Source of the DNA: Candidatus Kapaibacterium sp.
GTDB taxonomy: Bacteria > Bacteroidota > Ignavibacteria > Kapaibacteriales > UBA2268
Direction: 5' to 3'
Length of the DNA stretch: 64,000 bases
NCBI GenBank assembly: GCA_032027125.1
Contig: JAVSMQ010000001.1
Location: 12,819-76,818 of the forward strand
The position numbers and the translations under genes were made by a program. The notes beneath the pieces were generated by a model. It was not told the origin of the DNA and searched no databases. It saw only the letters and a program-made list of their open reading frames with translations. Shown piece after piece: positions 23,549 through 60,792 of the stretch. Within the stretch, counting starts at the first letter, position 1; the number at the start of each line of letters is the position of its first letter.

Positions 23549-24274
23549 ATGGACAGTGTAAATTTCGATACTTCGCACAATGTTTTTTTAGAATTTAAGG
23601 TTGCAGGACTTTTTGACAGGATTCTTGCTGCATGTATTGACGTCGTAATTCTGGTTATTTACTCAATTATAATCAGCATAATTTTAGTTCAAATTGTGCT
23701 GGTAGAAGGGGTTTATATAATAATCGCTTTATTTTTGCCGGTAATATTTTATGATTTGATTTGTGAATCTCTTTGGGGCGGGCAAAGTATCGGCAAGAAA
23801 TCAATGAAAATACGGGTTATCAGGGTTGACGGTTTGGAACCTACCTTTGTACAGTATTTTCTAAGATGGATTCTCCGTCCGGTTGATATTTGGATAACAA
23901 CAGGCGGACTTGCTGCACTTGTGGTTTTTCTAAACGGAAAAGGTCAGCGTATTGGCGACATGGCGGCTGGAACAACCGTAGTAAATATTCGGAAGGCTTT
24001 TCGGCTCGAAGACACAATTTTCAGCGGCATTGATGAATCCTATATTCCTGAATTTCCTGAAACTGCCGCTCTGAACGATAAGGATATTTCAATTTTAAAA
24101 GATGTTTTAAATGCAAACTTATTACCTGAAGTACCGGAAGCGGTTATTGACGGAAATTACAGGGTTAAAAGAATATTGGAAGAGAAGATGAAAATCAGCA
24201 CTCATAAGCCGCCCCTCGAATTTATTCAAAAAGTTATACTTGATTACAATTATTATAACAAAATTGCCAATTAA
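23549..24274 (+). CDS. RDD-family membrane protein
   Basis: FDRILAACIDVVILVIY, GQSIGKKSMKIRV and GQRIGDMAAGTTVV are typical RDD-domain features. The gene is divergent from the SpoIIM-like/MoxR operon. Confidence 0.7.
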   Translation: MDSVNFDTSHNVFLEFKVAGLFDRILAACIDVVILVIYSIIISIILVQIVLVEGVYIIIALFLPVIFYDLICESLWGGQSIGKKSMKIRVIRVDGLEPTFVQYFLRWILRPVDIWITTGGLAALVVFLNGKGQRIGDMAAGTTVVNIRKAFRLEDTIFSGIDESYIPEFPETAALNDKDISILKDVLNANLLPEVPEAVIDGNYRVKRILEEKMKISTHKPPLEFIQKVILDYNYYNKIAN

Positions 24275-24289
24275 ATTGTTTAACTTAAT

Positions 24290-25150
24290 TCAGAATTCAG
24301 CATTCAGCATTCAGAATTGCCTTCCAATTCCGTAGGAATGCCCTGTTTGTAGAAAAAATATCATTCCCTCAAATATCATCAAGCTCCGTAAGAGCGGACT
24401 GTTAAAAGAAAATGTACAAATACGATAATGAAATTCATTTTATCTCGTAGAGATTGAATTGTGGTAACATGAGCAATACCTAATTGATTGATATCCCGTA
24501 GGGATTATATTTTTTTACCATAATTCAACCTCTACGAGGTAGTTATGTTCATCGGGACAGGTTTTTGTTACCATAATTTATCTCCTATGGAGAAGAGAAC
24601 CCAAATAAACTCAAAATATGTCAATCTCAAAATGTGGATTTAAATCAGTGTAATCCTTTAATCCGTGTAATCCGTGATTCAGAATTGCCACCCAATTCCG
24701 TAGGAATGACCTTTTTGTAGAAAAAATATCTTGCCCGTAAATATTACTAAGCTCCGTAGGAGCGGACTGTTCAAACCAAAAAGACACTAATATAATAATG
24801 TAATTCATTTTATCTCATAGAGATTGAATTGTGGTAACATGAGCAATGCCTAATTGATTGATATCCCGTAGGGATTATATTTTTTTACCATAATTCAACC
24901 TCTACGAGGTAGTCATGTTCATCGGGACAGGTTTTTGTTACCATAATTTATCTCCTATGGAGAAGAGAACCCAAATAAACACAAAATATGTCAATCTCAA
25001 AATGTGGATTTAAATCAGTGTAATCCTTTAATCCGTGTAATCCGTGATTCAGAATTGCCATCCAATTCCGTAGGAATGCCCTGTTTGTAGAAAATAATCA
25101 ACCCCTCAAAAAATATGAAGCTCTGTAGGAGCGGACTGTTCAATTAACAA
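24290..25150. repeat. 368-370-bp tandem repeat, about 2.3 copies, built of GTA-loop mini-hairpins
   Basis: Unit starts (tcagaattgcc) lie at 24311, 24679 and 25049. The second halves of copies 1 and 2 are nearly identical. Each unit contains attccGTAggaat, gctcCGTAAgagc, atctcGTAgagat, atcccGTAgggat, acctcTACgaggt and tctccTATggaga. Confidence 0.9.
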
Positions 25151-25197
25151 GAATCTCTTAAAGAAATTAAATGAGTAAAATTTATTAAATAAACTTT

Positions 25198-25617
25198 CTA
25201 ACAACTACGAATAACTTTTGAACCCGACGGAATTACTTTTGTACCCGACGGAATTACTTTTGTACCCGACGGAATTACTTTTGAACCCGACGGAATTACT
25301 TTTGAACAACTACGATGAACTTTCGTACAAGTGCGATGAACTTTGCATAAGTTTCATTGTGCTTTGCATAAGGTTCATTATAATTTTCATATGGTTTATT
25401 ATACTTTTCATAAGGTTCATTACGCTTTTCATAAGGTTCATTACGCTTTTCATAAGGTTCATTACGCTTTTCATAAGGTTCATTACGCTTTTCATAGGGT
25501 TCATTATGCATTTCATAAGGTTCATTACGCTTTTCATAAGGTTCATTACGCTTTTCATAAGGTTCATTACGCTTTTCATAAGGTTCATTACGCTTTTCAT
25601 AAGGTTCATTACGCTTT
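25198..25617. repeat. 21-bp tandem array, 20 units in perfect register (locus 1)
   Basis: This was hand-parsed. There is 1 unit of ctaacaactacgaataacttt and 4 of tgWacccgacggaattacttt. Five transitional units follow. There are 4+5 units of tcataaggttcattacgcttt, separated by 1 variant. Confidence 0.95.
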
Positions 25618-25704
25618 TCATATATATTAAAACCTTAATGAAGGACATTTTAAGTACAATGAATTAAGTTAGAATATCAAATTACAACTTTCAATCATGA
25701 ACTG

Positions 25705-25748
25705 AAAACACAAAAAACCCTTCCGAAAGCATTGATTTTTCGGAAGGG
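25705..25748 (-). terminator. rho-independent terminator of the T9SS-cargo gene
   Basis: The 11-bp stem pairs cccttccgaaa (25718-25728) with tttcggaaggg (25738-25748). On the minus strand it is followed by TTTTTTGTGTTTT. Confidence 0.75.
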
Positions 25749-25847
25749 CTTATTATTATCAATAATTATTACTTCTTTCTATATCATTCTCCTCAAAATG
25801 ATTGAGGGAAGGAGGAAAATTATTAATGTTTTCATATTAATTTTCCT

Positions 25848-27125
25848 TTACTCTGTTACTAAAAATTTTGAGGAATATTCTGTCTTACCGTCTTGTATAT
25901 GTATCAGGTATGTTCCGTTGAGTAGTTTGATTGGAATTCTTAGTTCAGAATCAATTTTAGGAGAATTTAAAGTATATACAACTTTGCCTTTAATATCGCT
26001 AATTGAAATATTAATTTGACCGGAAATTGAAATCAATCCAGTGACAAATAGCGTGCTTTTTCGGTATTGAACGGATATAGCATTTTGTTGGATTGGCTCA
26101 CTTAGACCTGTTAGGATTTTATTAAGATCATAAGATTCAATACCTTCATTTCTTACTAAGAATGAATTATGAATAGGATTATATCCTAATAAACCCGATT
26201 TTCCGTGACGATAAAAGACTTTTTTATCATTTAGCAAATTCATTATCATAAAATTCCTTTTTGAAAAACTTTCACCAGAACTTAATCCAATTAAGTCATA
26301 GTCCAAAAAACAGAAATATATTACTCCATACTCAACATTCGACTCATTATAGTGTTTAAACAAACTCATGCCATCTAATTTGTAAACATAAAAATCTCTC
26401 AAATAGACTTGATACCCCACATACTTTCCATCCTGTGAGAATTTGATACTACGTACTTCAAAGTTACCGCCAATCTTAGCAAGTTCTTTAATTGGTTTTA
26501 GTGTGACAGCATCCCAGAGAGTTAAAATTGTATAAAATACATCATCTCCCATTATATCTTTTTCTGTTTTAGTACCTCCGGTTGCGAAGTATTTTCCGTC
26601 GAGTGAAGTTGCAATTACCGGTCTTGAATAATTCAAATCAAGATAAGTATATTCATCTTTTATTAAATTATAAACTACTAAGGACGAGTCAAGACCTGTT
26701 CCTAAAGCTTTTTGATGACAATAGATTATTCTGTTGCCATCTGGGAAAAACCTGAGATTTGGATATGAACCCGGCACTCTTAATTTTTTTAATACTGCTT
26801 CCGTTTCGTAATCAATTATTGTTACAGAATCTGTAAGTATCAGCAGATATTTTCCATCCGGTGAAATATCTCCGACGGGTGCTTTAATGTTAAATACCCG
26901 TATTACTTCTCCTGTATTACCATTTAATTCAGAAATACGTAAACCCTTCATGGCAATAATATTGCCATTAGGGTGTACAAGGAATGCTTCATAGCCTTCT
27001 GGGTCGGTCGTCTGCCAAAGCAGATATGGGTCGGGTTCTTGTCCCCAAAGGGGATTCATGCCGATTATTACTGACACTGCGATAAATAAAAACATCTTAC
27101 AGTTCATTTTCATAACTTTTCTCAA
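25848..27125 (-). CDS. secreted beta-propeller-like protein with T9SS C-terminal sorting domain
   Basis: A signal peptide is present. Repeated DGKY-type blades occur (ISPDGKYLLIL, SLDGKYFATG, FSQDGKYVGY). The C-terminal roughly 80 aa (ISISDIKGKVVYTL...LLNGTYLIHIQDGKTEYSSKFLVTE) resemble the T9SS type A CTD. Confidence 0.75.
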   Translation of the reverse strand: MRKVMKMNCKMFLFIAVSVIIGMNPLWGQEPDPYLLWQTTDPEGYEAFLVHPNGNIIAMKGLRISELNGNTGEVIRVFNIKAPVGDISPDGKYLLILTDSVTIIDYETEAVLKKLRVPGSYPNLRFFPDGNRIIYCHQKALGTGLDSSLVVYNLIKDEYTYLDLNYSRPVIATSLDGKYFATGGTKTEKDIMGDDVFYTILTLWDAVTLKPIKELAKIGGNFEVRSIKFSQDGKYVGYQVYLRDFYVYKLDGMSLFKHYNESNVEYGVIYFCFLDYDLIGLSSGESFSKRNFMIMNLLNDKKVFYRHGKSGLLGYNPIHNSFLVRNEGIESYDLNKILTGLSEPIQQNAISVQYRKSTLFVTGLISISGQINISISDIKGKVVYTLNSPKIDSELRIPIKLLNGTYLIHIQDGKTEYSSKFLVTE

Positions 27126-28662: not shown

Positions 28663-30343
28663 AAATAATGTAACATATTTGCAGGATGCAAACTACAGAA
28701 AACGTATTTTGTTATTTACTACAATTATTTATATCCTTTTTATCGGAAATGTTAATCTTTTCGACTGGGACGAGATAAATTTCGCCGAAGCAGCCCGTGA
28801 GATGATTGTAACAGGTGACTATCTGAATGTCCGTATTGATTATGAGCCGTTCCACGAAAAGCCGCCGCTGTTTATCTGGATGCAGGTTATTTCGATGAAA
28901 ATATTAGGTGTAAGCGAACAGTCAGCAAGACTTCCCAATGTCATATTTGGTATTTTAACATTATCATTTCTTATTAGAATCGGCAAAAATATATTTGACC
29001 GCAGGTTCGGTTATCTCTGGGCATTGGCATATTTCGGCTCGCTTCTACCCCACTTTTATTTTAAATCGAGTATTATTGACCCTGTTTTTAATTTTTTTAT
29101 GTTTGCAGGTGTCTATTATTTATTCAGGTTTACTTCCGAGAATATGATTACGGGTAAAATCATAAACAGGGATATTTATTGGGCAGGGCTATACACATCT
29201 CTTGCATTTATGACAAAGGGTCCGGTCGGGTTTATGCTTGTTTTCATTACCTGGGCTGTCTTTTGGGGATTTAATGCCCGGAGCTTCCAACTTCCGGTTA
29301 AACAAATTCTAATCTTTACCGGAATTTCATTCCTACCTGCAGTAATCTGGTATGCCGCAATATTCTATCAGCAGGGCGGCGGAATTATAAGTGAGTTTAT
29401 AACTTATCAGATTCGTCTGCTTACGACAGGTGATGCCGGTCATGAAGGTCCGTTTTATTATCATTTTTTAGTGGTATTTTTAGGATGTTTTCCTGCTTCA
29501 ATATTTGTTTTCAGAGCTTTCAGAAACAGTGAATTTGATAACTCATCACAAAAGATATTCAAAAATTTCAATATAATACTATTGGCAGTTGTGCTCATAA
29601 TTTTTTCAATTGTCAAGACAAAGATTGTTCATTATTCCTCTCTCTCCTATTTCCCTGTGACTTTTCTTGCAGCATATACAATGCATAAAATTATTAATGG
29701 TGAAATCAGGAACAAATTATCAACAAATATCGGTGTTGCTGCAATCGGTATAATTTTATCAATACTTTTTATAGCTTTTCCGCTTGTATTAATGAATATT
29801 GACAGCTTTCTTCCTCAAATTACGGATAAATTTACAAATGCTTTGCTTCAGGCAGAAGTTAGTTGGACAGGATTCGAGATTGTAGTTGGATTTACTTTGC
29901 TAATTGGGACAATTTTTTACTTGATATATTCTATTAGGAAAGAGTATTTAAAATCATATATTTCTATATACTTAGCTACTGCGTTGACAATTTTTCTTTT
30001 TCTGCCTGTGATGGCTCCTAAAATCGGAATTTATACTCAAAGAGCACCGGTTGATTTCTTTAAATCATTAGCAGGAAAGGATGTATATGTTCATACATTA
30101 GGTTATAAGAGCTATGCTCCTTATTTTTATCAGAGAAAAGAATTAAAAAACTCAAAATATTACATGAAAATGACCGGTGAAGAATACGAAGATTTCTTAC
30201 TGACAGGCAATATCCAAAAGCCTGCTTATTTTTCTGCTAAGAATAATAATATTGACGAATATCTTGTCAGGCAGCCGCAGTTGAAGGAATTATACAGGAA
30301 AAACGGATTTGTATTCTTTGTCAGGGAGCCGGTAAAAGAGTAA
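28646..30343 (+). CDS. GT39/ArnT-like lipid-carrier-dependent glycosyltransferase
   Basis: There are more than 10 TM helices. The N-terminal loop motif is [14 protein letters not shown]...[10 protein letters not shown], as in ArnT/PMT-family enzymes. The gene overlaps the end of umuC by 17 nt. Confidence 0.75.
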
Positions 30344-30536
30344 TAGTTTTCTGTCGAATAAATTCTTTTGGATTGAGAATATTTAACTTATGAGTCTGTT
30401 ACAAAAAGTATTTATTTATTCTTATTTTACATGAATGCTACATTGAGTGATGTCGAAATGTAATATATACGTTATTTGAAAGTTATTAAATCCCTTCCTT
30501 CGACTTCGCTAAGGATGACCAAAATACCGGTGTTTT

Positions 30537-30698
30537 GTATTTGTCCCCCGCTGGCGGGGGCAGGGGGTGGAAATTAATTTTTGGATTTCTTAAACGTTAT
30601 AATGTAAAACGACAATTTTTGGTTTATAATTCTGAGAGACTGCGAAGGTCTGAATTTAATTTTCCACCCCCTAACCCCCGCCAGCGGGGGACAAATAC
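30537..30698. repeat. GC-rich nested palindromic element (about 41-bp inverted arms, about 78-bp core)
   Basis: The left arm is gtatttgtcccccgctggcgggggcagggggtggaaattaa (30537-30577). Its near-perfect reverse complement lies at 30656-30698. Each arm also contains its own palindrome, cccccgcYRgcggggg. Confidence 0.9.
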
Positions 30699-30868
30699 TA
30701 AAGAACTGAATTTATCACTTTGAGGTAATGAGTACATGAATTAATAAATTAACAGCCTGGACTCTTCGCAGGCTCAGAGAGACAAAACAAGGGGTTTTAT
30801 TTAAAATAAATCTTTAGTGACTCTTTATCTGGATTTCCATTTATTAAAAAACCAAACTTATACATCTT

Positions 30869-32890
30869 TTAATTATTATGTACAGTAAGCGGCAGAGATA
30901 TTTTAACGGTAGTTCCTTCACCCGATTTTGAGGAGATTGAAATATCACCGCCCATAATTTGGGAAAATTCTTTACAAATTATCAGTCCTAAACCGGTACC
31001 CCGCTCTCCGTTTGTACCTATATCGGGCTTTTTATAATCAATTCTGAATAAATTATCAAGGTCAATTTCATCAATTCCAACACCGTTATCTTTTATAATA
31101 AATACCGCCTGACCATTATTTGACTCGTTAGATAATTCAATTGTACCGCCGCTGTTTGTAAATTTTATTGAATTATTAACAGTATTACGAATCAGTGTAT
31201 CAAACAAATTAACATCATTATCTATAATCAAATTCTTGTCAACATAATTGTTAATTGTAATATTTTTATTGTTTGCAGTTGTAATCAATAAATCAATGGT
31301 TGATTGAACGGAAGCATTTGCATTAAATCTTGACTGATTAATTTCAAGAGAATTTCGTTGCGCTGTTGACCAAAGCAGAAGATTCTCAAGTAAATTCAGC
31401 ATTTCTGTTGAAGAAATAGCCAGTTCCTTTATGATTTCCTGCTTTTCGATATCAGTAAAATCATCTTTGTAAATATTCATCTGGTCAAGTATCATTTTTG
31501 TTCCGCCCATAGGACCTCTCAGGTCATGAGCAATAATCGAAAAGAATTTATCCTTAGTAGCATTCAAATCCATTAAATTCTTTTCAGACAAGGAAAGAGC
31601 CTCGTTAGTTCTTTTTAATTGTTTAGCCTTAAAGACAAGCATCGCAGTTAATCCAAGCAAAAACAAAGCAAGAAGTCCGATAATATACAGATAAACAGTG
31701 ATTTCGTTCAGATATTTTTTAATAAGAGCATTTTCTTCTTTAGTGCTTTTAACTTCTTCGCGGTATTTTACAACTCTTTCGGCGTTAAAATCACCTTCGA
31801 GACTTAGCGATGCCTGAGCAATTTCGCTGACAACTGCAATTTTATTCAGTGAATCGGTTAGATTTATTAATGTATCCAGATATTTATAAGCATTTTCAAA
31901 ATCACCTAAAGCGAAGTAATTATCGGCAATATTATCATAAAGATTTTTTAAGATAAATGTGTTATTCAGATTCTTTGAAATCTCGAGACTTTTGATATTG
32001 TAATCAATTGATTGTTTAAAATCACCTGATTTAGTGTAATAACTTCCATAAGTGTTATAAATATTGGATATTAATAAATCATTTTTTAATGAATCGGCAT
32101 ACGTCTCGGCAAGTTTTAAAAATGGCAGAGCCCTGGAGGTTTCATTTTGGCTTATTAAAATTCTTGCAAAAAGATTACGGTTTGAAGTAATTAAATCTAA
32201 TCTGTCCGTAAGTTTCAAATAGGTAAAGCCTTTGTCACAAAACTGCTTTGCTTTTGAATAGTTTCCGATAAGATTATAATAATTACCAATATTTGAATAA
32301 ATAAATCCACGGCTGAGAGTGTCGTTTGATTCGATAGAAATTTCCAAACCCTTATCAAGGGTTTCCTTCATTTTTTCATAGTCTTTCAAATCAAGATAGA
32401 TATTTGCAATATTATTAATTACAGACAACATGGAAGGAGTGTTATTATTATTTTTTGCAAAATCATAAGCTTCTCTGTATGCCTTCAGAGCAGCTATATA
32501 ATTATTTTTCTTTTTGTAAATAATTCCGATATTATTCAGGCAGTGATTAATTCCGACTTTAGATTTGATATCCTTTAGAATATTCAAAGACAAGTGATAA
32601 TATTTTAAAGCTGAGTCAAGATTTTCAAGATAATCATTTGCAAAAGCTAAATTGAAATAATACCGCGCTAATTTTTCGGGTTCTTTTATTTTCTTACTAA
32701 GTTCGGATATGGAAACAAGAATTTCTAATGAAACCTCTGGATTACTATTCACTAATGAAGAGGCATATAAGTTATATTCTTTAAATTTCACACTATCAGG
32801 TTTATTTTCCAATGACTTTCTTAAACTGTCAATATTAGAATACATTATATTAGATGAAATCAAAAAGAAGATGACAATAGCTTTAAACAT
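30869..32890 (-). CDS. TPR-sensor histidine kinase (signal peptide, TPR repeats, TM, HisKA, HATPase_c)
   Basis: The H-box is FSIIAHDLRGPMGG. N, G1 and G2 boxes are present (NNSIKFT, DNGVGI, GTGLGL). The N-terminal half is TPR-like, with one TM helix before the kinase core. Confidence 0.88.
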   Translation of the reverse strand: MFKAIVIFFLISSNIMYSNIDSLRKSLENKPDSVKFKEYNLYASSLVNSNPEVSLEILVSISELSKKIKEPEKLARYYFNLAFANDYLENLDSALKYYHLSLNILKDIKSKVGINHCLNNIGIIYKKKNNYIAALKAYREAYDFAKNNNNTPSMLSVINNIANIYLDLKDYEKMKETLDKGLEISIESNDTLSRGFIYSNIGNYYNLIGNYSKAKQFCDKGFTYLKLTDRLDLITSNRNLFARILISQNETSRALPFLKLAETYADSLKNDLLISNIYNTYGSYYTKSGDFKQSIDYNIKSLEISKNLNNTFILKNLYDNIADNYFALGDFENAYKYLDTLINLTDSLNKIAVVSEIAQASLSLEGDFNAERVVKYREEVKSTKEENALIKKYLNEITVYLYIIGLLALFLLGLTAMLVFKAKQLKRTNEALSLSEKNLMDLNATKDKFFSIIAHDLRGPMGGTKMILDQMNIYKDDFTDIEKQEIIKELAISSTEMLNLLENLLLWSTAQRNSLEINQSRFNANASVQSTIDLLITTANNKNITINNYVDKNLIIDNDVNLFDTLIRNTVNNSIKFTNSGGTIELSNESNNGQAVFIIKDNGVGIDEIDLDNLFRIDYKKPDIGTNGERGTGLGLIICKEFSQIMGGDISISSKSGEGTTVKISLPLTVHNN

Positions 32891-49133: not shown

Positions 49134-49331
49134 AATTATAAGTTTAAAAATTCTTTTTAATTCTTATTTCAAGTACTTTACAAACATAACTAAAATCAAT
49201 CTTTTTCCCCTTTCTTTTTTCAAATCATGAAAAATAAATGGGAAACAACATAGATTTTTTGTTGTCAGATAAGAATTGAATATTGTTCTTTGAAGTTCTA
49301 ACTTAATTCATTTTCCTTAAAATGTCTTTCA

Positions 49332-49771
49332 TTAAGGTTATAATCTCTATGAAAAGCATAAGAAACCTTATGAAAAGCATAAGAAACCTTATGAAAAGCA
49401 TAAGAAACCTTATGAAAAGCATAAGAAACCTTATGAAAAGCATAAGAAACCTTATGAAAAGCGTAATGAACCTTATGAAAAGGTCAGGATACCTTTCAGA
49501 AAGTCAATGTAATTGTACAATTACTCTCAGATTTTGTTCAATTTAACGCAGAATCAGTTAAAAAGAGCGTTTCCGCACTTCACGCGGTCTTTCCCGACCC
49601 TCGCTGACCAATCGGACAGCCTCGATGACCAATCGGACAGCCTCGCTGACCAATCGGACAGCCTCGCTGATAATCGGACAGCCTCGCTGACCAAATGAAC
49701 AGCCTCGATGACCAAATGAACAGCCTCGATGACCAAATGAACAGCCTCGATGACCAAATGAAAGACATCGG
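49332..49771. repeat. 21-bp tandem array (locus 2), inverted relative to locus 1
   Basis: There are 5 units of aaagcataagaaaccttatga and 1 of aaagcgtaatgaaccttatga, which is the exact reverse complement of the locus-1 unit. Degenerate units follow. There are 3 units of tgaccaatcggacagcctcgM and one 20-nt unit. Last come 3 units of tgaccaaatgaacagcctcga plus 1 variant. Confidence 0.95.
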
Positions 49772-49799
49772 AACATAATTGATGACAAACGAAACGTTT

Positions 49800-50010
49800 G
49801 TTACAGTCCTCGAAGAGCATTCCGATACTTGTACTGAACAGTCCGCTCATAAGGAGCATCAAAAATTGTCAATTGATGATTGACAATTAAGCTGGAAATG
49901 CAATGATTTAAGAATCTTTTTTTATTAACAGGGCATTACTGCGGAGTTTAACGTATTTCTTCACATCCTTTTTTCATGGAGGGATTTAGGGGTGGTAATC
50001 AAAAAGTGAA
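49800..50010. repeat. hairpin-module repeats in inverted orientation (counterpart of 47521-47620 and 25049-25150)
   Basis: The reverse complement reads ccacccctaaatccctccatgaaaaaaggatgtg .. aaactccgcagtaatgccctgttaataaaaaaag .. gctccttatgagcggactgttcag. This is homologous to modules at 47.52 kb and 25.05-25.14 kb. Confidence 0.7.
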
Positions 50011-55811: not shown

Positions 55812-57983
55812 TTATACAGTTTTTTCTGTTTCGTCTGTAGATTCAGTAACCGGAGCTTCAACAGGTGTTTCAGCTACAGCAGGTGCTTCAACCTCAGCAG
55901 GTGCTTCAACTTCAGCAGGTGTCTCAACTGGAGCTTCAATTTTAGCAGGTGCTTCAACTTCAGCAGATGCTTCAACTTCAGCAGATGCTTCAACTTCAGC
56001 AGACGCTTCAGCCACAGCAGGAGCTTCGACTGGTGCTTCAACTTTTACAGCCGGTTTTGCTTTAGTTAGTGTTCTAACTTCAGGTTCAACTTCAAAGTTT
56101 TTAAAATCATCCTTGCCGATTCTTTTGTATTCGAGATTGAATTCTTCACTGAAGAAATCAGCCTGAGAACTGTCATAAGTTACTTCAACAGGAGGATTGT
56201 CAGCATTTGGTACCGGATGAGCTTTATTGTAAGCATCAATTAATGACTGATCTTTACTGCGTAATGCTTCAACTACCGAAAGTACAATCTTCTTTGCTTC
56301 TTTGTCAAACTCGACAACTTTTAAAGGAAGATTATCTCCAATCTTGAAATATTCACTGATGTTCTTGACCGGTGCAAATGAAAGTTGTGATACAGGAACA
56401 AATCCGTCCACACCCTCTGGCAATTCAACAATCACGCCTTTTTCGATAATTCTTTCGATCTTAGCTTCAGATTCCGAACCGATGCTATATGTATTTTCAA
56501 AAGTATCCCAAGGATTGTCATTTATTTGCTTATGACCAAGAGCTATTCTTCTTTGTTCAGGGTCAATGCTCAACACCATTACTTCAAGTCTGTCGCCTTT
56601 TTTAACGAATTCCCCCGGATGGCGGATTTTCTTTGTCCATGACAAGTCACTGATATGTACAAGACCGTCAACACCTGGTTCGAGTTCAACAAACACACCG
56701 AAATTCGTAAGATTTCTTACAATTCCGTTATGGCGTGAATCAACAGGGTACTTTCTCATAAGGTCTTCCCATGGATCCGGTTCGAGTTGTTTCATACCAA
56801 GAGCAAGTTTTTTGTTATCTTTATCTATATTTAGAACAGTAGCTTCCACAACCTGACCCATAGAAACAATTTGAGACGGATGTTTTACATGTTGTGTCCA
56901 TGACATTTCACTTATGTGAATCAAACCTTCGATACCTTTTTCGATTTCGATAAATGCACCGTAGTCTGTCAGGCTGACAACTTTACCGCTAACCTTAGTA
57001 GCTTTTTCATATTTTTCACCGATGGTATCCCATGGATGTGGCGTAAGCTGTTTCATGCCAAGAGAAATTCTCTTCTTGTCGCCGTCGAAATCAAGAACAA
57101 CAACTTTGACGACTTCATCAAGTGTAACGATTTCAGTTGGATGAGTAACACGTCCCCATGATAAATCTGTAATGTGAACAAGCCCGTCAACGCCGCCCAA
57201 ATCAACAAATACACCAAAGTCTGAAATAGCTTTAACCGTACCCTCAAGCACGAGTCCTTTTTCAAGACGTGACATAATTTCGGTTCTCTGTTCGGAAAGT
57301 TGTTCTTCAAGCAGAACTTTGTGTGAAACAACAACGTTTTCACTTGGGTGATTAACTTTAACAACTTTAACGTCAATAGTTTTTGTAACCCAGCCGTCGA
57401 AATCTCTTACAGGACGAACATCAATCTGTGAGCCCGGTAAGAATGCTTCGATTCCAAGTAAATCAACAACCATTCCGCCTTTGATTCTGCGAAGAATTTT
57501 AACTTTGGTAACTTCCTGTTTATCGTATAATGCAATAATATCTTCCCAAATTCTCATGAAGTCGGCACGACGTCTCGATAATAATAATTTACCGTTAGAA
57601 TCTTCCATCTTTTCGATAAATACATCAATCTCATCGCCTATTTTATACGTTTCAGCATTAAGAAGCTCTGCTTTAGGCACAACACCCAAAGACTTAAAAC
57701 CTATATCAACAAATACTTCATCTTTGGTAATGTTGACAATACGACCGCTAACCAGCTCATCTTCTTTAATTATCTTGATAGCAGTATCAAACATTTTAGA
57801 AAAGGAATCATCATCAATATCAAAACTGTCAAATCCGCCTTCTAAAAAGTTTGTGATAGCATCTGCATCATATCTCTTGACTTGTTTTTGAATGCCATGC
57901 ATTGGATGTTTGGAATCAGATCCCTGAAAATCGCCTTCAGCTACAGCGACAACATCTTGATTCATATTAGCATTATCCGACAT
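55812..57983 (-). CDS. rpsA: 30S ribosomal protein S1 with Ala/Glu/Pro/Val-rich repeat tail
   Basis: Six S1 domains are present (GRIVNITKDEVFVDIG, G.VKAISDFGVFVDLGGVDGLVHITDLSW, and similar). The start was placed at the ATG at 57983, which is preceded by ggaggac. The upstream part of the ORF looks non-coding. Confidence 0.93.
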   Translation of the reverse strand: MSDNANMNQDVVAVAEGDFQGSDSKHPMHGIQKQVKRYDADAITNFLEGGFDSFDIDDDSFSKMFDTAIKIIKEDELVSGRIVNITKDEVFVDIGFKSLGVVPKAELLNAETYKIGDEIDVFIEKMEDSNGKLLLSRRRADFMRIWEDIIALYDKQEVTKVKILRRIKGGMVVDLLGIEAFLPGSQIDVRPVRDFDGWVTKTIDVKVVKVNHPSENVVVSHKVLLEEQLSEQRTEIMSRLEKGLVLEGTVKAISDFGVFVDLGGVDGLVHITDLSWGRVTHPTEIVTLDEVVKVVVLDFDGDKKRISLGMKQLTPHPWDTIGEKYEKATKVSGKVVSLTDYGAFIEIEKGIEGLIHISEMSWTQHVKHPSQIVSMGQVVEATVLNIDKDNKKLALGMKQLEPDPWEDLMRKYPVDSRHNGIVRNLTNFGVFVELEPGVDGLVHISDLSWTKKIRHPGEFVKKGDRLEVMVLSIDPEQRRIALGHKQINDNPWDTFENTYSIGSESEAKIERIIEKGVIVELPEGVDGFVPVSQLSFAPVKNISEYFKIGDNLPLKVVEFDKEAKKIVLSVVEALRSKDQSLIDAYNKAHPVPNADNPPVEVTYDSSQADFFSEEFNLEYKRIGKDDFKNFEVEPEVRTLTKAKPAVKVEAPVEAPAVAEASAEVEASAEVEASAEVEAPAKIEAPVETPAEVEAPAEVEAPAVAETPVEAPVTESTDETEKTV
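55870..56010. repeat. 18-bp in-frame tandem repeats encoding (E-V-E-A-[SP]-A)n in the S1 tail
   Basis: gcttcaacttcagcag[ag]t is repeated back to back, for example at 55951, 55969 and 55987, with diverged copies upstream. Confidence 0.8.
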
Positions 57984-58152
57984 TAAAGTCCTCCAAAAAA
58001 ATAAAATTATAGTGAAACAAACAGTGTAAAAATTACACCACAAAACATTTTCATATTTTGTACATTTTAGCCATGTAAAATAATACTTAAATTTCAATTA
58101 GACAAATATTTACATGTTTTTTTATGATTTTTTACAATTCTTATTGATTTTA

Positions 58153-59226: not shown

Positions 59227-60792
59227 ATGAATAACACTGAAAATCCGGATAATAAAGGTAAACTTTATATTGTTTCAACTCCTATCGGTAACAAAGATGA
59301 TATCACTCTCAGGGCAATCAACACTATTAAACGCTGCGATATAATCGTTTGCGAAGAAATGAAAATGGGAGCCTTAACCCTCAAAAATCTAAATCTTGCT
59401 AAAGAGCTGATTCCTCTTAATGAGAATAATGAAAGTGATATGACAATGGAAGTCCTGAATTTACTCAAAGCAGGTAAAAAGATTGCTTTGATTTCTGATG
59501 CAGGAACTCCAGTCTTTGCCGATCCGGGTTTATATCTTGTCCGCACTGCAATTTCAAATAATATTGAAATGGAAGTCGTTCCCGGTGTGTCAAGTATAAT
59601 GACTGCAATCGTCAGAAGCGGTTTTGATATTTATGAATTTCTTTATGCCGGATTTCTTCCACGCAAAAACGAAGACCGTGACAGAAAAATTCAGCGTCTG
59701 GCAAGAGAACGCCGAACAGTTGTAATACTTGAGACTCCATACAGATTGAACACTCTGTTAAATGCCTGCGCTGAAATTTTACCGGATAGACGTGTTTATC
59801 TGGGCATGAATTTAACTATGCCTTTTGAGACACATCATTACGGTACATTTGCAGAATTGGTTAAGAAATTTGAAAATTCAAAAATCAAGTCCGAATTTGT
59901 GCTTATCATGGAAGGTAATAAAGAATGGATTGGTCCGAAAAAAACTGAAATTTCGGATGATTATTATGATGATGACGACGACGATGATGATGATGGACCC
60001 GTTGAATATGAGTATCCTGTAAAAGCCCATATTAAACCTCCTGTTTCAACCAACAGAAAAATTATTTCTGACAAAAGCAGATTTAAAAAAAGTACTGATT
60101 CAAGAACCGGCAGTTATTCAGGTGCTAAAAAGCCGGGTAGCGGATTCAGTAGAGGCAGTTCTTCAGGAAGCAGGGATTACAATTCTTCAAGTCCAAGAAA
60201 AAGCTATGGCGGTGAATCCGGAGGTTCTTCGGAATTCAGGAAATCACCCGACAGAGATTACAAATCTTCAAGTCCAAGAAAAAGCTACGGCGGTGAATCA
60301 GGAGGTTCATCGGAATTCAGGAAATCACCCGACAGAGATTTCAAATCTTCAAGTCCTAGAAAAAGCTATGGCGGTGAATCAGGCGGTTCATCGGAATTCA
60401 GGAAATCACCCGACAGAGATTTCAAATCTTCAAGTCCAAGAAAAAGCTACGGTGGTGAATCAGGCGGTTCGTCGGAATTCAGGAAATCACCGGATAGAGA
60501 TTTCAAATCTTCAAGTCCAAGAAAAAGCTACGGCGGTGAATCAGGCGGCTCTTCAGAATTCAGGAAATCACCCGACAGAGATTACAAATCTTCAAGTCCT
60601 AGAAAAAGCTATGGCGGAGAATCAGGCGGTTCGTCGGAATTTAGGAAATCACCGGACAGAGATTACAAATCTTCAAGTCCTAGAAAAAGCTATGGCGGAG
60701 AATCAGAGGGCGGATTCTCAGGAGTGAAAAGAACCCCGAGAAAAACTATAAGCCGTGGCAGACCAAGCAAAGGCGGATTTTCGAAAAAATAG
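59227..60792 (+). CDS. rsmI: 16S rRNA (cytidine1402-2'-O)-methyltransferase RsmI fused to poly-Asp linker and Ser/Gly/Arg/Lys-rich tandem-repeat tail
   Basis: The N-terminal roughly 235 aa are RsmI-like (LYIVSTPIGNKDDITLRAINTIKRCDIIVCE, SDAGTPVFADPG, PGVSS, ILETPYR). DDYYDDDDDDDDDG follows, then 6.7 copies of a 27-aa repeat, all in one frame. Confidence 0.85.
   Translation: MNNTENPDNKGKLYIVSTPIGNKDDITLRAINTIKRCDIIVCEEMKMGALTLKNLNLAKELIPLNENNESDMTMEVLNLLKAGKKIALISDAGTPVFADPGLYLVRTAISNNIEMEVVPGVSSIMTAIVRSGFDIYEFLYAGFLPRKNEDRDRKIQRLARERRTVVILETPYRLNTLLNACAEILPDRRVYLGMNLTMPFETHHYGTFAELVKKFENSKIKSEFVLIMEGNKEWIGPKKTEISDDYYDDDDDDDDDGPVEYEYPVKAHIKPPVSTNRKIISDKSRFKKSTDSRTGSYSGAKKPGSGFSRGSSSGSRDYNSSSPRKSYGGESGGSSEFRKSPDRDYKSSSPRKSYGGESGGSSEFRKSPDRDFKSSSPRKSYGGESGGSSEFRKSPDRDFKSSSPRKSYGGESGGSSEFRKSPDRDFKSSSPRKSYGGESGGSSEFRKSPDRDYKSSSPRKSYGGESGGSSEFRKSPDRDYKSSSPRKSYGGESEGGFSGVKRTPRKTISRGRPSKGGFSKK
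60175..60715 (+). repeat. 81-bp in-frame tandem repeat, 6.7 copies (D[YF]KSSSPRKSYGGESGGSSEFRKSPDR)
   Basis: Unit starts (gatt[at]caa) lie at 60175, 60256, 60337, 60418, 60499, 60580 and 60661. Differences between copies are mostly synonymous. Confidence 0.95.

Follow-up and report, generated by a model that had tools for sequence, protein, structure and literature searches.

A 21-bp tandem array in a Kapabacteria-like chromosome as the possible core of a BOX-like composite intergenic repeat

The array and its surroundings at locus 1

The window analysed here is a 64,000-nucleotide stretch of chromosomal DNA from an uncultured, Kapabacteria/Ignavibacteria-like bacterium of the FCB group (Candidatus Kapaibacterium sp., contig JAVSMQ010000001.1), and the subject of this report is an array of 21-bp tandem units at 25198-25617 together with the composite element that contains it. 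The closest named relatives of the RDD protein encoded next to the array are Kapabacteria/Ignavibacteria metagenome-assembled genomes (MAGs), at no more than 62% identity. The element was found at least three times: at 25047-25820 on the plus strand (locus 1), at 49255-49945 on the minus strand (locus 2), and about 230 bp past the right end of the window (locus 3). The genes around these loci are housekeeping genes, among them SpoIIM, RDD, a beta-propeller protein sorted by the type IX secretion system (T9SS), a Y-family polymerase, the nuo operon, LytB and fmt, with a TPR protein and a methyltransferase as further neighbours. No tRNA and no Rfam family was found in the window.

At locus 1 the element lies between two convergent genes, RDD (23549-24274, plus strand) and a T9SS protein (25848-27113, minus strand). 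The whole gap between them, 24275-25847, is a mosaic of small repeats: a 7-bp microsatellite, a 370-bp repeat, hairpins with GTA loops, and 21-bp arrays. Its features are as follows.

24287-24318, plus strand: 7-bp microsatellite (AATTCAG/CATTCAG)n, directly after the RDD stop codon, at the left edge of the repeat region (Tandem Repeats Finder)
24309-25143, plus strand: 370-bp tandem repeat, 2.3 copies, each a 5' module (~104 nt) and an R module (~266 nt) (Tandem Repeats Finder score 1430)
25047-25150, plus strand: the 5' module next to the array, hairpin attccgtaggaat followed by GCCCTGTT, then hairpin gctctgtaggagc followed by GGACTGTTCA
25198-25617, plus strand: 21-bp array, one first unit, four tgWaccc units, five transitional units and ten tcataaggttcattacgcttt units including the variant at 25492
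25618-25715, plus strand: conserved 3' flank, a partial unit, an inverted partial unit AACCTTAATGAAGG (25631-25644), then ..gacattttaag...aatgaattaagttagaa..tcaaa.. (alignments and pattern search)
25709-25820, no strand assigned: right end of the element, a hairpin at 25718-25748 plus ~70 nt (terminator scan)
25310-25648, minus strand: candidate micro-ORF (open reading frame) of 112 aa, MSFIKVLIY + (MKSVMNL)n, with its ATG at 25648-25646

Parsed in steps of 21 bp, the array resolves into 20 contiguous units with zero register slip, 19 of which end in TTT; this reproduces exactly the description in an earlier note on this DNA. One ctaacaactacgaataacttt unit comes first, followed by four copies of tgWacccgacggaattacttt (25219-25302), five transitional units (25303-25407), four copies of tcataaggttcattacgcttt, the variant tcatagggttcattatgcatt at 25492, and five identical tcataaggttcattacgcttt units up to 25617. 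Every unit carries CTTT in the same register. Tandem Repeats Finder recovered period 21 at 25209-25307 (score 177) and again at 25341-25622 (score 459, 13.4 copies, 93% matches, 0% indels). The tandem periodicity is far beyond chance. Twenty head-to-tail units of 21 bp with 0% indels and no spacers fit the definition of a minisatellite or variable-number tandem repeat (VNTR), in which abutting units measure about 10-100 bp. Past 25617 the array runs on as a partial unit (25618-25626) into the conserved 3' flank, whose opening stretch is itself a partial unit in inverted orientation.

The 5' module heads every copy of the 370-bp repeat at locus 1, with further copies at 24309-24412 and 24677-24780, and is also common to loci 2 and 3. 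The 370-bp repeat is 87-90% identical to its copy at locus 3, and the right end of the element (25709-25820) is 85% identical to its counterpart there (12408-12518 of contig L038). The hairpin at 25718-25748 has its T-run on the minus strand, so it is the terminator of the T9SS gene. Within the R module, a 27-nt arm at 24441-24467 is complementary to either of two arms further downstream (24515-24541 and 24566-24589) and several GTA-loop hairpins have 5-bp stems, so that the module resembles a miniature inverted-repeat transposable element (MITE) or an alternative-structure element.

Further copies and variation between strains

Locus 2 repeats the module order of locus 1 in inverted orientation: 5' module, 21-bp arrays, conserved 3' flank. 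Its 5' module has a pair of small hairpins with GTA loops, the first followed by GCCCTGTT and the second by GGACTGTTCA, and the shared 3' flank, about 95 nt long, reads aaccttaatgaaRgacattttaag..aatgaattaagttagaa. A 116-nt spacer (49483-49598) separates a proximal from a distal array. Locus 3 lies on contig L038, which was reached from the right end of the window by an exact-protein look-up.

49255-49337, minus strand: locus 2 3' flank, inverted; part of a 228-nt stretch (49255-49482) that is 84% complementary to 25488-25715 (pattern search)
49338-49482, minus strand: locus 2 proximal array, a partial unit, 5 x tcataaggtttcttatgcttt, then one locus 1 unit (Tandem Repeats Finder score 249)
49599-49757, minus strand: locus 2 distal array, 7.6 x ctgtYcRWttggtcaKcgagg (Tandem Repeats Finder score 213, 1% indels)
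49835-49945, minus strand: locus 2 5' module, diverged, ..ctccgcagtaatGCCCTGTT.. and gctccttatgagcGGACTGTTCA
49325-49546, plus strand: locus 2 counterpart of the micro-ORF, 73 aa, same start and N-terminus
L038 11161-12518: locus 3, beginning ~230 bp past the right end of the window
L038 11503-12033, minus strand: locus 3 counterpart of the micro-ORF, 176 aa, same start and N-terminus

Locus 3 opens with a partial 370-bp module and a 5' module, which lead into array A (cttttcccaaggttcattata x17.3); array B (cttttcatatagtctgttaca x7.6) and the 3' flank follow, and array C (cggaagacctgaaaacgaata x9.4) stands on the far side of the flank, before a terminator hairpin of the locus 1 type. All three arrays have period 21. 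A conserved 5' module and 3' flank thus bracket one to three blocks of 21-bp units, and the copies, like the assemblies, differ in unit number and in unit variants. The element measures roughly 0.7-1.5 kb, and at least three copies lie within 76 kb.

These copies are not readily explained by duplication of a larger segment. The genes beside the three copies are unrelated to each other, and the non-array modules of loci 1 and 3 are 85-90% identical (the arrays ~80%), whereas the T9SS proteins adjoining the same two loci share only ~26% identity, which indicates that the element was dispersed rather than carried along when an old segment was duplicated. A search for terminal inverted repeats turned up nothing convincing, the ends of locus 3 matching by eye over just 7 nt (ATTCATT), nor were there target-site duplications, for which no empty site was available for comparison. 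Loci 1 and 2 also form a pair of 228-nt inverted repeats (25488-25715 and 49255-49482), 23.5 kb apart and enclosing the nuo operon and other core genes, which makes them a potential substrate for chromosomal inversion. The idea that these two copies are the ends of a 24-kb mobile island was rejected, the interior being core genes such as the nuo operon.

Comparison between assemblies revealed changes in array length at loci 1 and 3. In a Joint Genome Institute (JGI) contig of the same species (L001), locus 1 has three tgWaccc units instead of four and one 370-bp copy fewer; at locus 3 in sample 3300019775 (L039), array B has about 2 units instead of about 7, and array C 14.4 instead of 9.4. 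Copy number thus differs between strains, as in a VNTR, the comparison being one of metagenome assemblies whose short-read contigs break in the arrays; contigs from many samples end inside them. Together with the runs of identical units, these differences bear out the recent amplification proposed in the earlier note.

In another strain, whose TPR protein is 100% identical, an element of the IS21 insertion sequence (IS) family (IstB_IS21, E=2e-80) sits exactly at the junction of array and 3' flank at locus 2 (L005 1-741 and L007-L013; equivalent to ~49325 in the window), and the locus 2 copy is therefore dispensable as a unit. On comparison, no kinship was found between the composite element and the IS21 copy. 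The 59 nt of flank beside the insertion are identical to the window, and the next ~100 nt are much more diverged.

Further away, the 5' module is retained in one relative, whose RDD protein is 87% identical (contig L032). At the same site it is identical at 58/58 nt (window 24309-24366 against L032 1822-1879, where the contig ends), while the adjacent RDD gene is 88% identical overall and 79% at third codon positions; the 7-bp microsatellite differs in copy number. Such identity of the 5' module reflects constraint or else a recent exchange. In relatives whose RDD proteins are 54-62% identical, the syntenic site lacks the element, and the 61 kb covered contain no 21-bp array. Scans of genome and metagenome contig collections with the 3' flank gave chance matches only (L014-L024), the source samples evidently not being included; viral contigs scanned with the 3' flank or the 5' module gave no match, nor did blastn against plasmids and phages. 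A literature search on 21-bp intergenic repeats and on tandem repeats in Ignavibacteria found no papers. Recurrence was borne out by two further copies, and a conserved gene neighbourhood was not.

Slippage, reading frame or binding site

What kind of element is this? We put the probability at about one half that it is a non-coding, BOX-like composite intergenic repeat, with the array as an expandable module in its middle that evolves by in-register slippage. The array itself is most likely a self-propagating minisatellite, not a CRISPR, an iteron or a known RNA. Under this proposal, arrays would expand, contract and homogenise through slipped-strand mispairing or unequal recombination, always in register, with the conserved CTTT(T) unit boundary serving as the microhomology. 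Local amplification of one variant would produce blocks of identical units, and older units left at block borders would form the transitional gradient. Spread of the whole element could have involved transposition in trans or recombination. The array DNA probably has no sequence-specific cellular function, and any effects it has would be incidental: a substrate for recombination, a target for IS insertion, a spacer between convergent genes.

The period is 21 in all seven arrays, which together hold ~70 units of at least four types, with the sole exception of one 20-bp unit in the distal array of locus 2 (49661-49680; unit spacing 21, 21, 41, 21, 21). The core units (the main unit of locus 1, the proximal array of locus 2, and arrays A and B of locus 3) are clearly related to one another, whereas the tgWaccc units, the distal units of locus 2 and array C of locus 3 have no significant similarity to them in a permutation test over rotations and strands. 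The transitional units at locus 1 bridge unit types, and these units and the CTTT kept in register argue for common descent with local homogenisation. Since slippage or unequal exchange in register copies whole units, the period can be inherited from old units by new ones, and its persistence is explained without selection. The earlier note took conservation of phase across diverged units to imply a constraint on the period itself; the conservation holds, and extends to two further loci, but selection is not implied, since slippage suffices and the 20-bp unit shows that indels do arise. A constraint on the period may nevertheless exist.

Several observations weigh against a neutral, slipping repeat. 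Period 21 is held in ~70 units of at least four dissimilar types, where neutrality would be expected to let some arrays drift to 20 or 22 bp. The 58/58 identity of the 5' module suggests a constraint on at least part of the element. A minus-strand ATG and a 12-codon N-terminus are conserved in all three copies, with 4/6 substitutions synonymous in that frame only. The differences in copy number could partly be assembly artefacts. Just three copies were seen, and a mechanism of mobility is unsupported, with neither terminal inverted repeats nor target-site duplications found.

The closest described analogue, by architecture, is the pneumococcal BOX element, although we do not claim membership of its family. 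In Streptococcus pneumoniae and S. suis, BOX elements are composite interspersed repeats of the form boxA-(boxB)n-boxC, with the same modular architecture and with variability that depends on length (PMC3049150). In both, a short internal module is repeated in tandem between conserved modules at the 5' and 3' ends, copies are scattered through intergenic DNA, and the internal module number varies among copies and strains, the more so in longer arrays; several internal module types can occur, as they do in S. suis. The differences are these: the unit is 21 bp rather than 45 bp and the phylum is another one; array length is much greater, reaching 17-24 units per block and ~34 per locus; unit types come in blocks, with an inverted array at locus 3; neither terminal inverted repeats nor target duplications were found; and a terminator hairpin and a candidate micro-ORF belong to the element as well. 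The bacterial interspersed mosaic elements (BIME) of enterobacteria and the Neisseria intergenic mosaic elements (NIME) are likewise intergenic mosaics (PMC3049150). The gap at 24275-25847 is similar to them in being a mosaic of small repeats between convergent genes, but they have no long phase-locked minisatellite core, and the REP and dRS3 motifs are absent here.

Mycobacterial interspersed repetitive unit (MIRU)-type VNTR loci are intergenic head-to-tail repeats of tens of bp with copy-number polymorphism between strains. They resemble the present arrays in that the unit length is divisible by 3, which lets small ORFs read through the repeats; unlike them, these arrays sit inside a larger conserved composite element, comprise several diverged unit families with one period, and show no link to operon junctions.

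If the BOX-like interpretation is correct, the element would represent a family of composite interspersed repeats not described before, from the poorly studied Kapabacteria/Ignavibacteria lineage, and a clean case of concerted evolution, combining block homogenisation with inheritance of the period. It would also supply ready VNTR markers for tracking strains in metagenomes and explain why short-read assemblies of the source organism break at element sites. It does not bear on a long-standing open question, and neither does the coding alternative considered next.

Could the conserved minus-strand frame be the real object of selection? The product of a small protein gene running from 25648 to 25310 would start with MSFIKV(L/I)I(Y/S) and continue with K-S-[IV]-x-[ND]-[LY]-x heptads in variable number, in which I/V and L/Y three and four residues apart make a coiled-coil or amphipathic-helix-like pattern. 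Slippage in 21-bp (7-codon) steps would alter protein length in frame, in the manner of a contingency locus; the period and the CTTTT boundary (AAA AGY = Lys-Ser) would both persist because the frame is under selection; and the arrays outside the ORF (25198-25302, 49599-49757 and array C of locus 3) would be decayed former coding repeats. We regard such a gene as the main rival to the BOX-like interpretation, though an unlikely one. Conservation of the ATG and the first 12 codons (N-terminus MSFIKV(L/I)I(Y/S)MKS) extends over the three loci and over strain variants, and the frame is the only stop-free one in the N-terminal region. The four synonymous substitutions (TCC/TCT/TCA, ATA/ATC, AGC/AGT) compare with ~16% expected (binomial p ~0.007, or ~0.04 after correction for six frames), although these statistics rest on six events only. 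The frame stays open through 13, 6.5 and 24 units at loci 1, 2 and 3, a public gene caller annotated it at locus 3, and generic coiled-coil matches in Pfam/NCBIfam, all below threshold, came from this frame only. A conserved box, ttctaacttaat, stands at a fixed 14 nt upstream of the ATG.

Expression signals cut both ways. In the window they are Bacteroidetes-type in a Kapabacteria/Ignavibacteria-like genome: among 29 gene starts only two have a Shine-Dalgarno motif upstream, and TAnnTTTG boxes are frequent 12-55 nt before the start codon. A start lacking a Shine-Dalgarno motif is thus normal here, but no TAnnTTTG box lies within 80 nt upstream of the micro-ORF, although the genome uses this signal, and at locus 1 the start lies only ~70 nt behind a strong terminator. 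The codon-usage log-odds are ~0.3 per heptad (7 codons) against 2.05 +/- 1.85 in real genes, and negative in the N-terminus. Unit variants are mostly non-synonymous in the frame (Leu to Pro; Gly in every heptad of array A at locus 3), methionine content reaches 28%, and the ORF is short-lived: at locus 1 a stop inside the repeats ends it, and at locus 2 the spacer does, while in the other strain the IS21 element interrupts codon 4 of the locus 2 copy. The heptad-peptide gene suggested in the earlier note has therefore survived in part: one minus-strand frame has a start and N-terminus conserved in three copies, but it has no recognisable promoter and its codon usage is not gene-like.

Open frames as such say little. 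As that note had stated, the main unit of locus 1 is stop-free in 4/6 frames; across unit variants two other frames are as stop-free as that of the micro-ORF, and three of the six are open in 24-25 of 27 variants, so that stop-codon avoidance is uninformative as a coding test. Protein homology searches with the array ORFs gave no match and are equally uninformative, because such small ORFs are largely missing from the protein collection searched. Two other frames were discarded: a plus-strand 149-aa ORF, (FIRFITL)n, has TAG in every array B unit of locus 3 and in its flank and gave no hidden Markov model (HMM) matches; a minus-strand frame, (PYEKRNE)n, called as a 71-aa gene in L001, finds a start codon only within the variant unit and meets stops in the tgWaccc units.

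A stronger version of the coding proposal makes the three loci paralogous hypervariable micro-genes on a dispersed element, each a leader-poor minus-strand ORF of MSFIKVLIY and 6 to 24 heptads, whose helix length changes in 7-residue steps as a repeat-number contingency system for a small coiled-coil protein. This version is quite doubtful. If true, selection on the frame would explain why ~70 dissimilar units are all 21 bp long, and the micro-ORF would add an example, from beyond the well-known pathogens, of a small coiled-coil protein tuned by changes in repeat number.

Selection on the period would also follow if the arrays were cis-acting DNA sites, either bound on one helix face every 21 bp by a protein encoded elsewhere or acting as a curved or superhelical scaffold. 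The geometry fits: 21.0 bp corresponds to 1.98-2.00 predicted helical turns in every unit type, the period persists across unit families that are no longer similar, CTTT(T) keeps its register across diverged units, and TTCAT/ATGAA motifs are enriched, with 23 per kb in the arrays and the flank where the window has 6 per kb. In plasmid centromeres and iterons, such as the 20-bp repeats of pSK41 parC and the 43-bp repeats of F sopC, spacer-less direct repeats are found, with a period near two helical turns in some. Unlike them, the present arrays are chromosomal, have no adjacent par or rep genes, differ in unit sequence between blocks, and contain many more units. No rep, par or DNA-binding/regulator gene is common to the three neighbourhoods, which have no conserved genes at all, so the iteron- or centromere-like role raised in the earlier note finds no partner. 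Unit sequences differ between blocks so much that a single sequence-specific binder is judged unlikely. Curvature predicted from wedge parameters is ordinary, locally at the 75th-83rd percentile by one count and at the 12th-83rd percentile of the window by another; for the units it lies at the 3rd-87th percentile of shuffled tandem 21-mers and is no more coherent than in those, with one type nearly straight. As each unit makes about two turns, any net bend adds up, and coherent bending is generic for 21-bp tandem arrays. The arrays also have no plasmid or phage similarity, their copy number is unconstrained, and one copy is disrupted by an IS. We consider a DNA-site function improbable.

Little probability likewise attaches to a non-coding RNA gene, whether on the plus strand (from 5' module through arrays and 3' flank to hairpin) or antisense, in which the repeats would be a reiterated binding platform (a sponge) or an insert of variable length that a structured RNA can accommodate, an idea put forward for boxB in BOX transcripts. 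The BOX precedent (PMC3049150) favours such a gene, as do the 5' module, conserved beyond neutral expectation, the small conserved hairpins, the hairpin that follows the flank at loci 1 and 3, and the inverted partial unit in the flank, which is able to pair with array units. However, Rfam 15 gave 0 matches at the gathering score and only weak, chance-level matches at E up to 10, and folding energies are not clearly below those of 20 shuffles (minimum free energy z = -1.0 on the plus strand and -2.3 on the minus strand; z = -1.6 for the 370-bp unit), which leaves the structured RNA of the earlier note without backing. The hairpin stems are invariant or, at locus 2, broken without compensation, the T-run of the terminator is on the strand opposite to a plus-strand RNA, and the unit types have no common motif except CTTT. 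By the criteria for refutation in the earlier note, the functional proposals are weakened: more distant relatives lack the array, its length varies among close relatives, and one strain has an IS inserted in it.

The weakest candidates can be dismissed briefly. The arrays share with CRISPR a regularity that breaks short-read assemblies, but a CRISPR, TIGR or retron-like system was rejected, the units abutting without spacers (as the earlier note had observed), with no cas, reverse transcriptase (RT) or Nop genes, no cas domains in neighbouring genes, and Rfam CRISPR-DR matches far below threshold. That the tgWaccc units are tandem promoters was also set aside: their TActTTTG fits the -7 box TAnnTTTG but has no counterpart in the other arrays, and the match is treated as coincidence.

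Other repeats in and near the window

Two tandem repeats in the window are coding. An 81-bp (27-aa) repeat present 6.6 times at 60171-60706 forms the C-terminal extension of a TP_methylase protein (59227-60792), which is 521 aa long in the window and in L039 and 467 aa in L038. An 18-bp repeat of ~10 copies (55856-56031) lies in a protein with six S1 domains (55812-58097), of 761 aa in the window and 723 aa in L038. The intergenic gap at 30343-30869, in a region of 34% GC, holds a GC-rich inverted repeat (..GTCCCCCGCTGGCGGGGG.., 30522-30713) with 46-nt arms that are 83% complementary and 100 nt apart. About 8 kb to the left of the window, a 141-bp tandem repeat occurs 2.4 times in another intergenic gap (L035 2041-2385).

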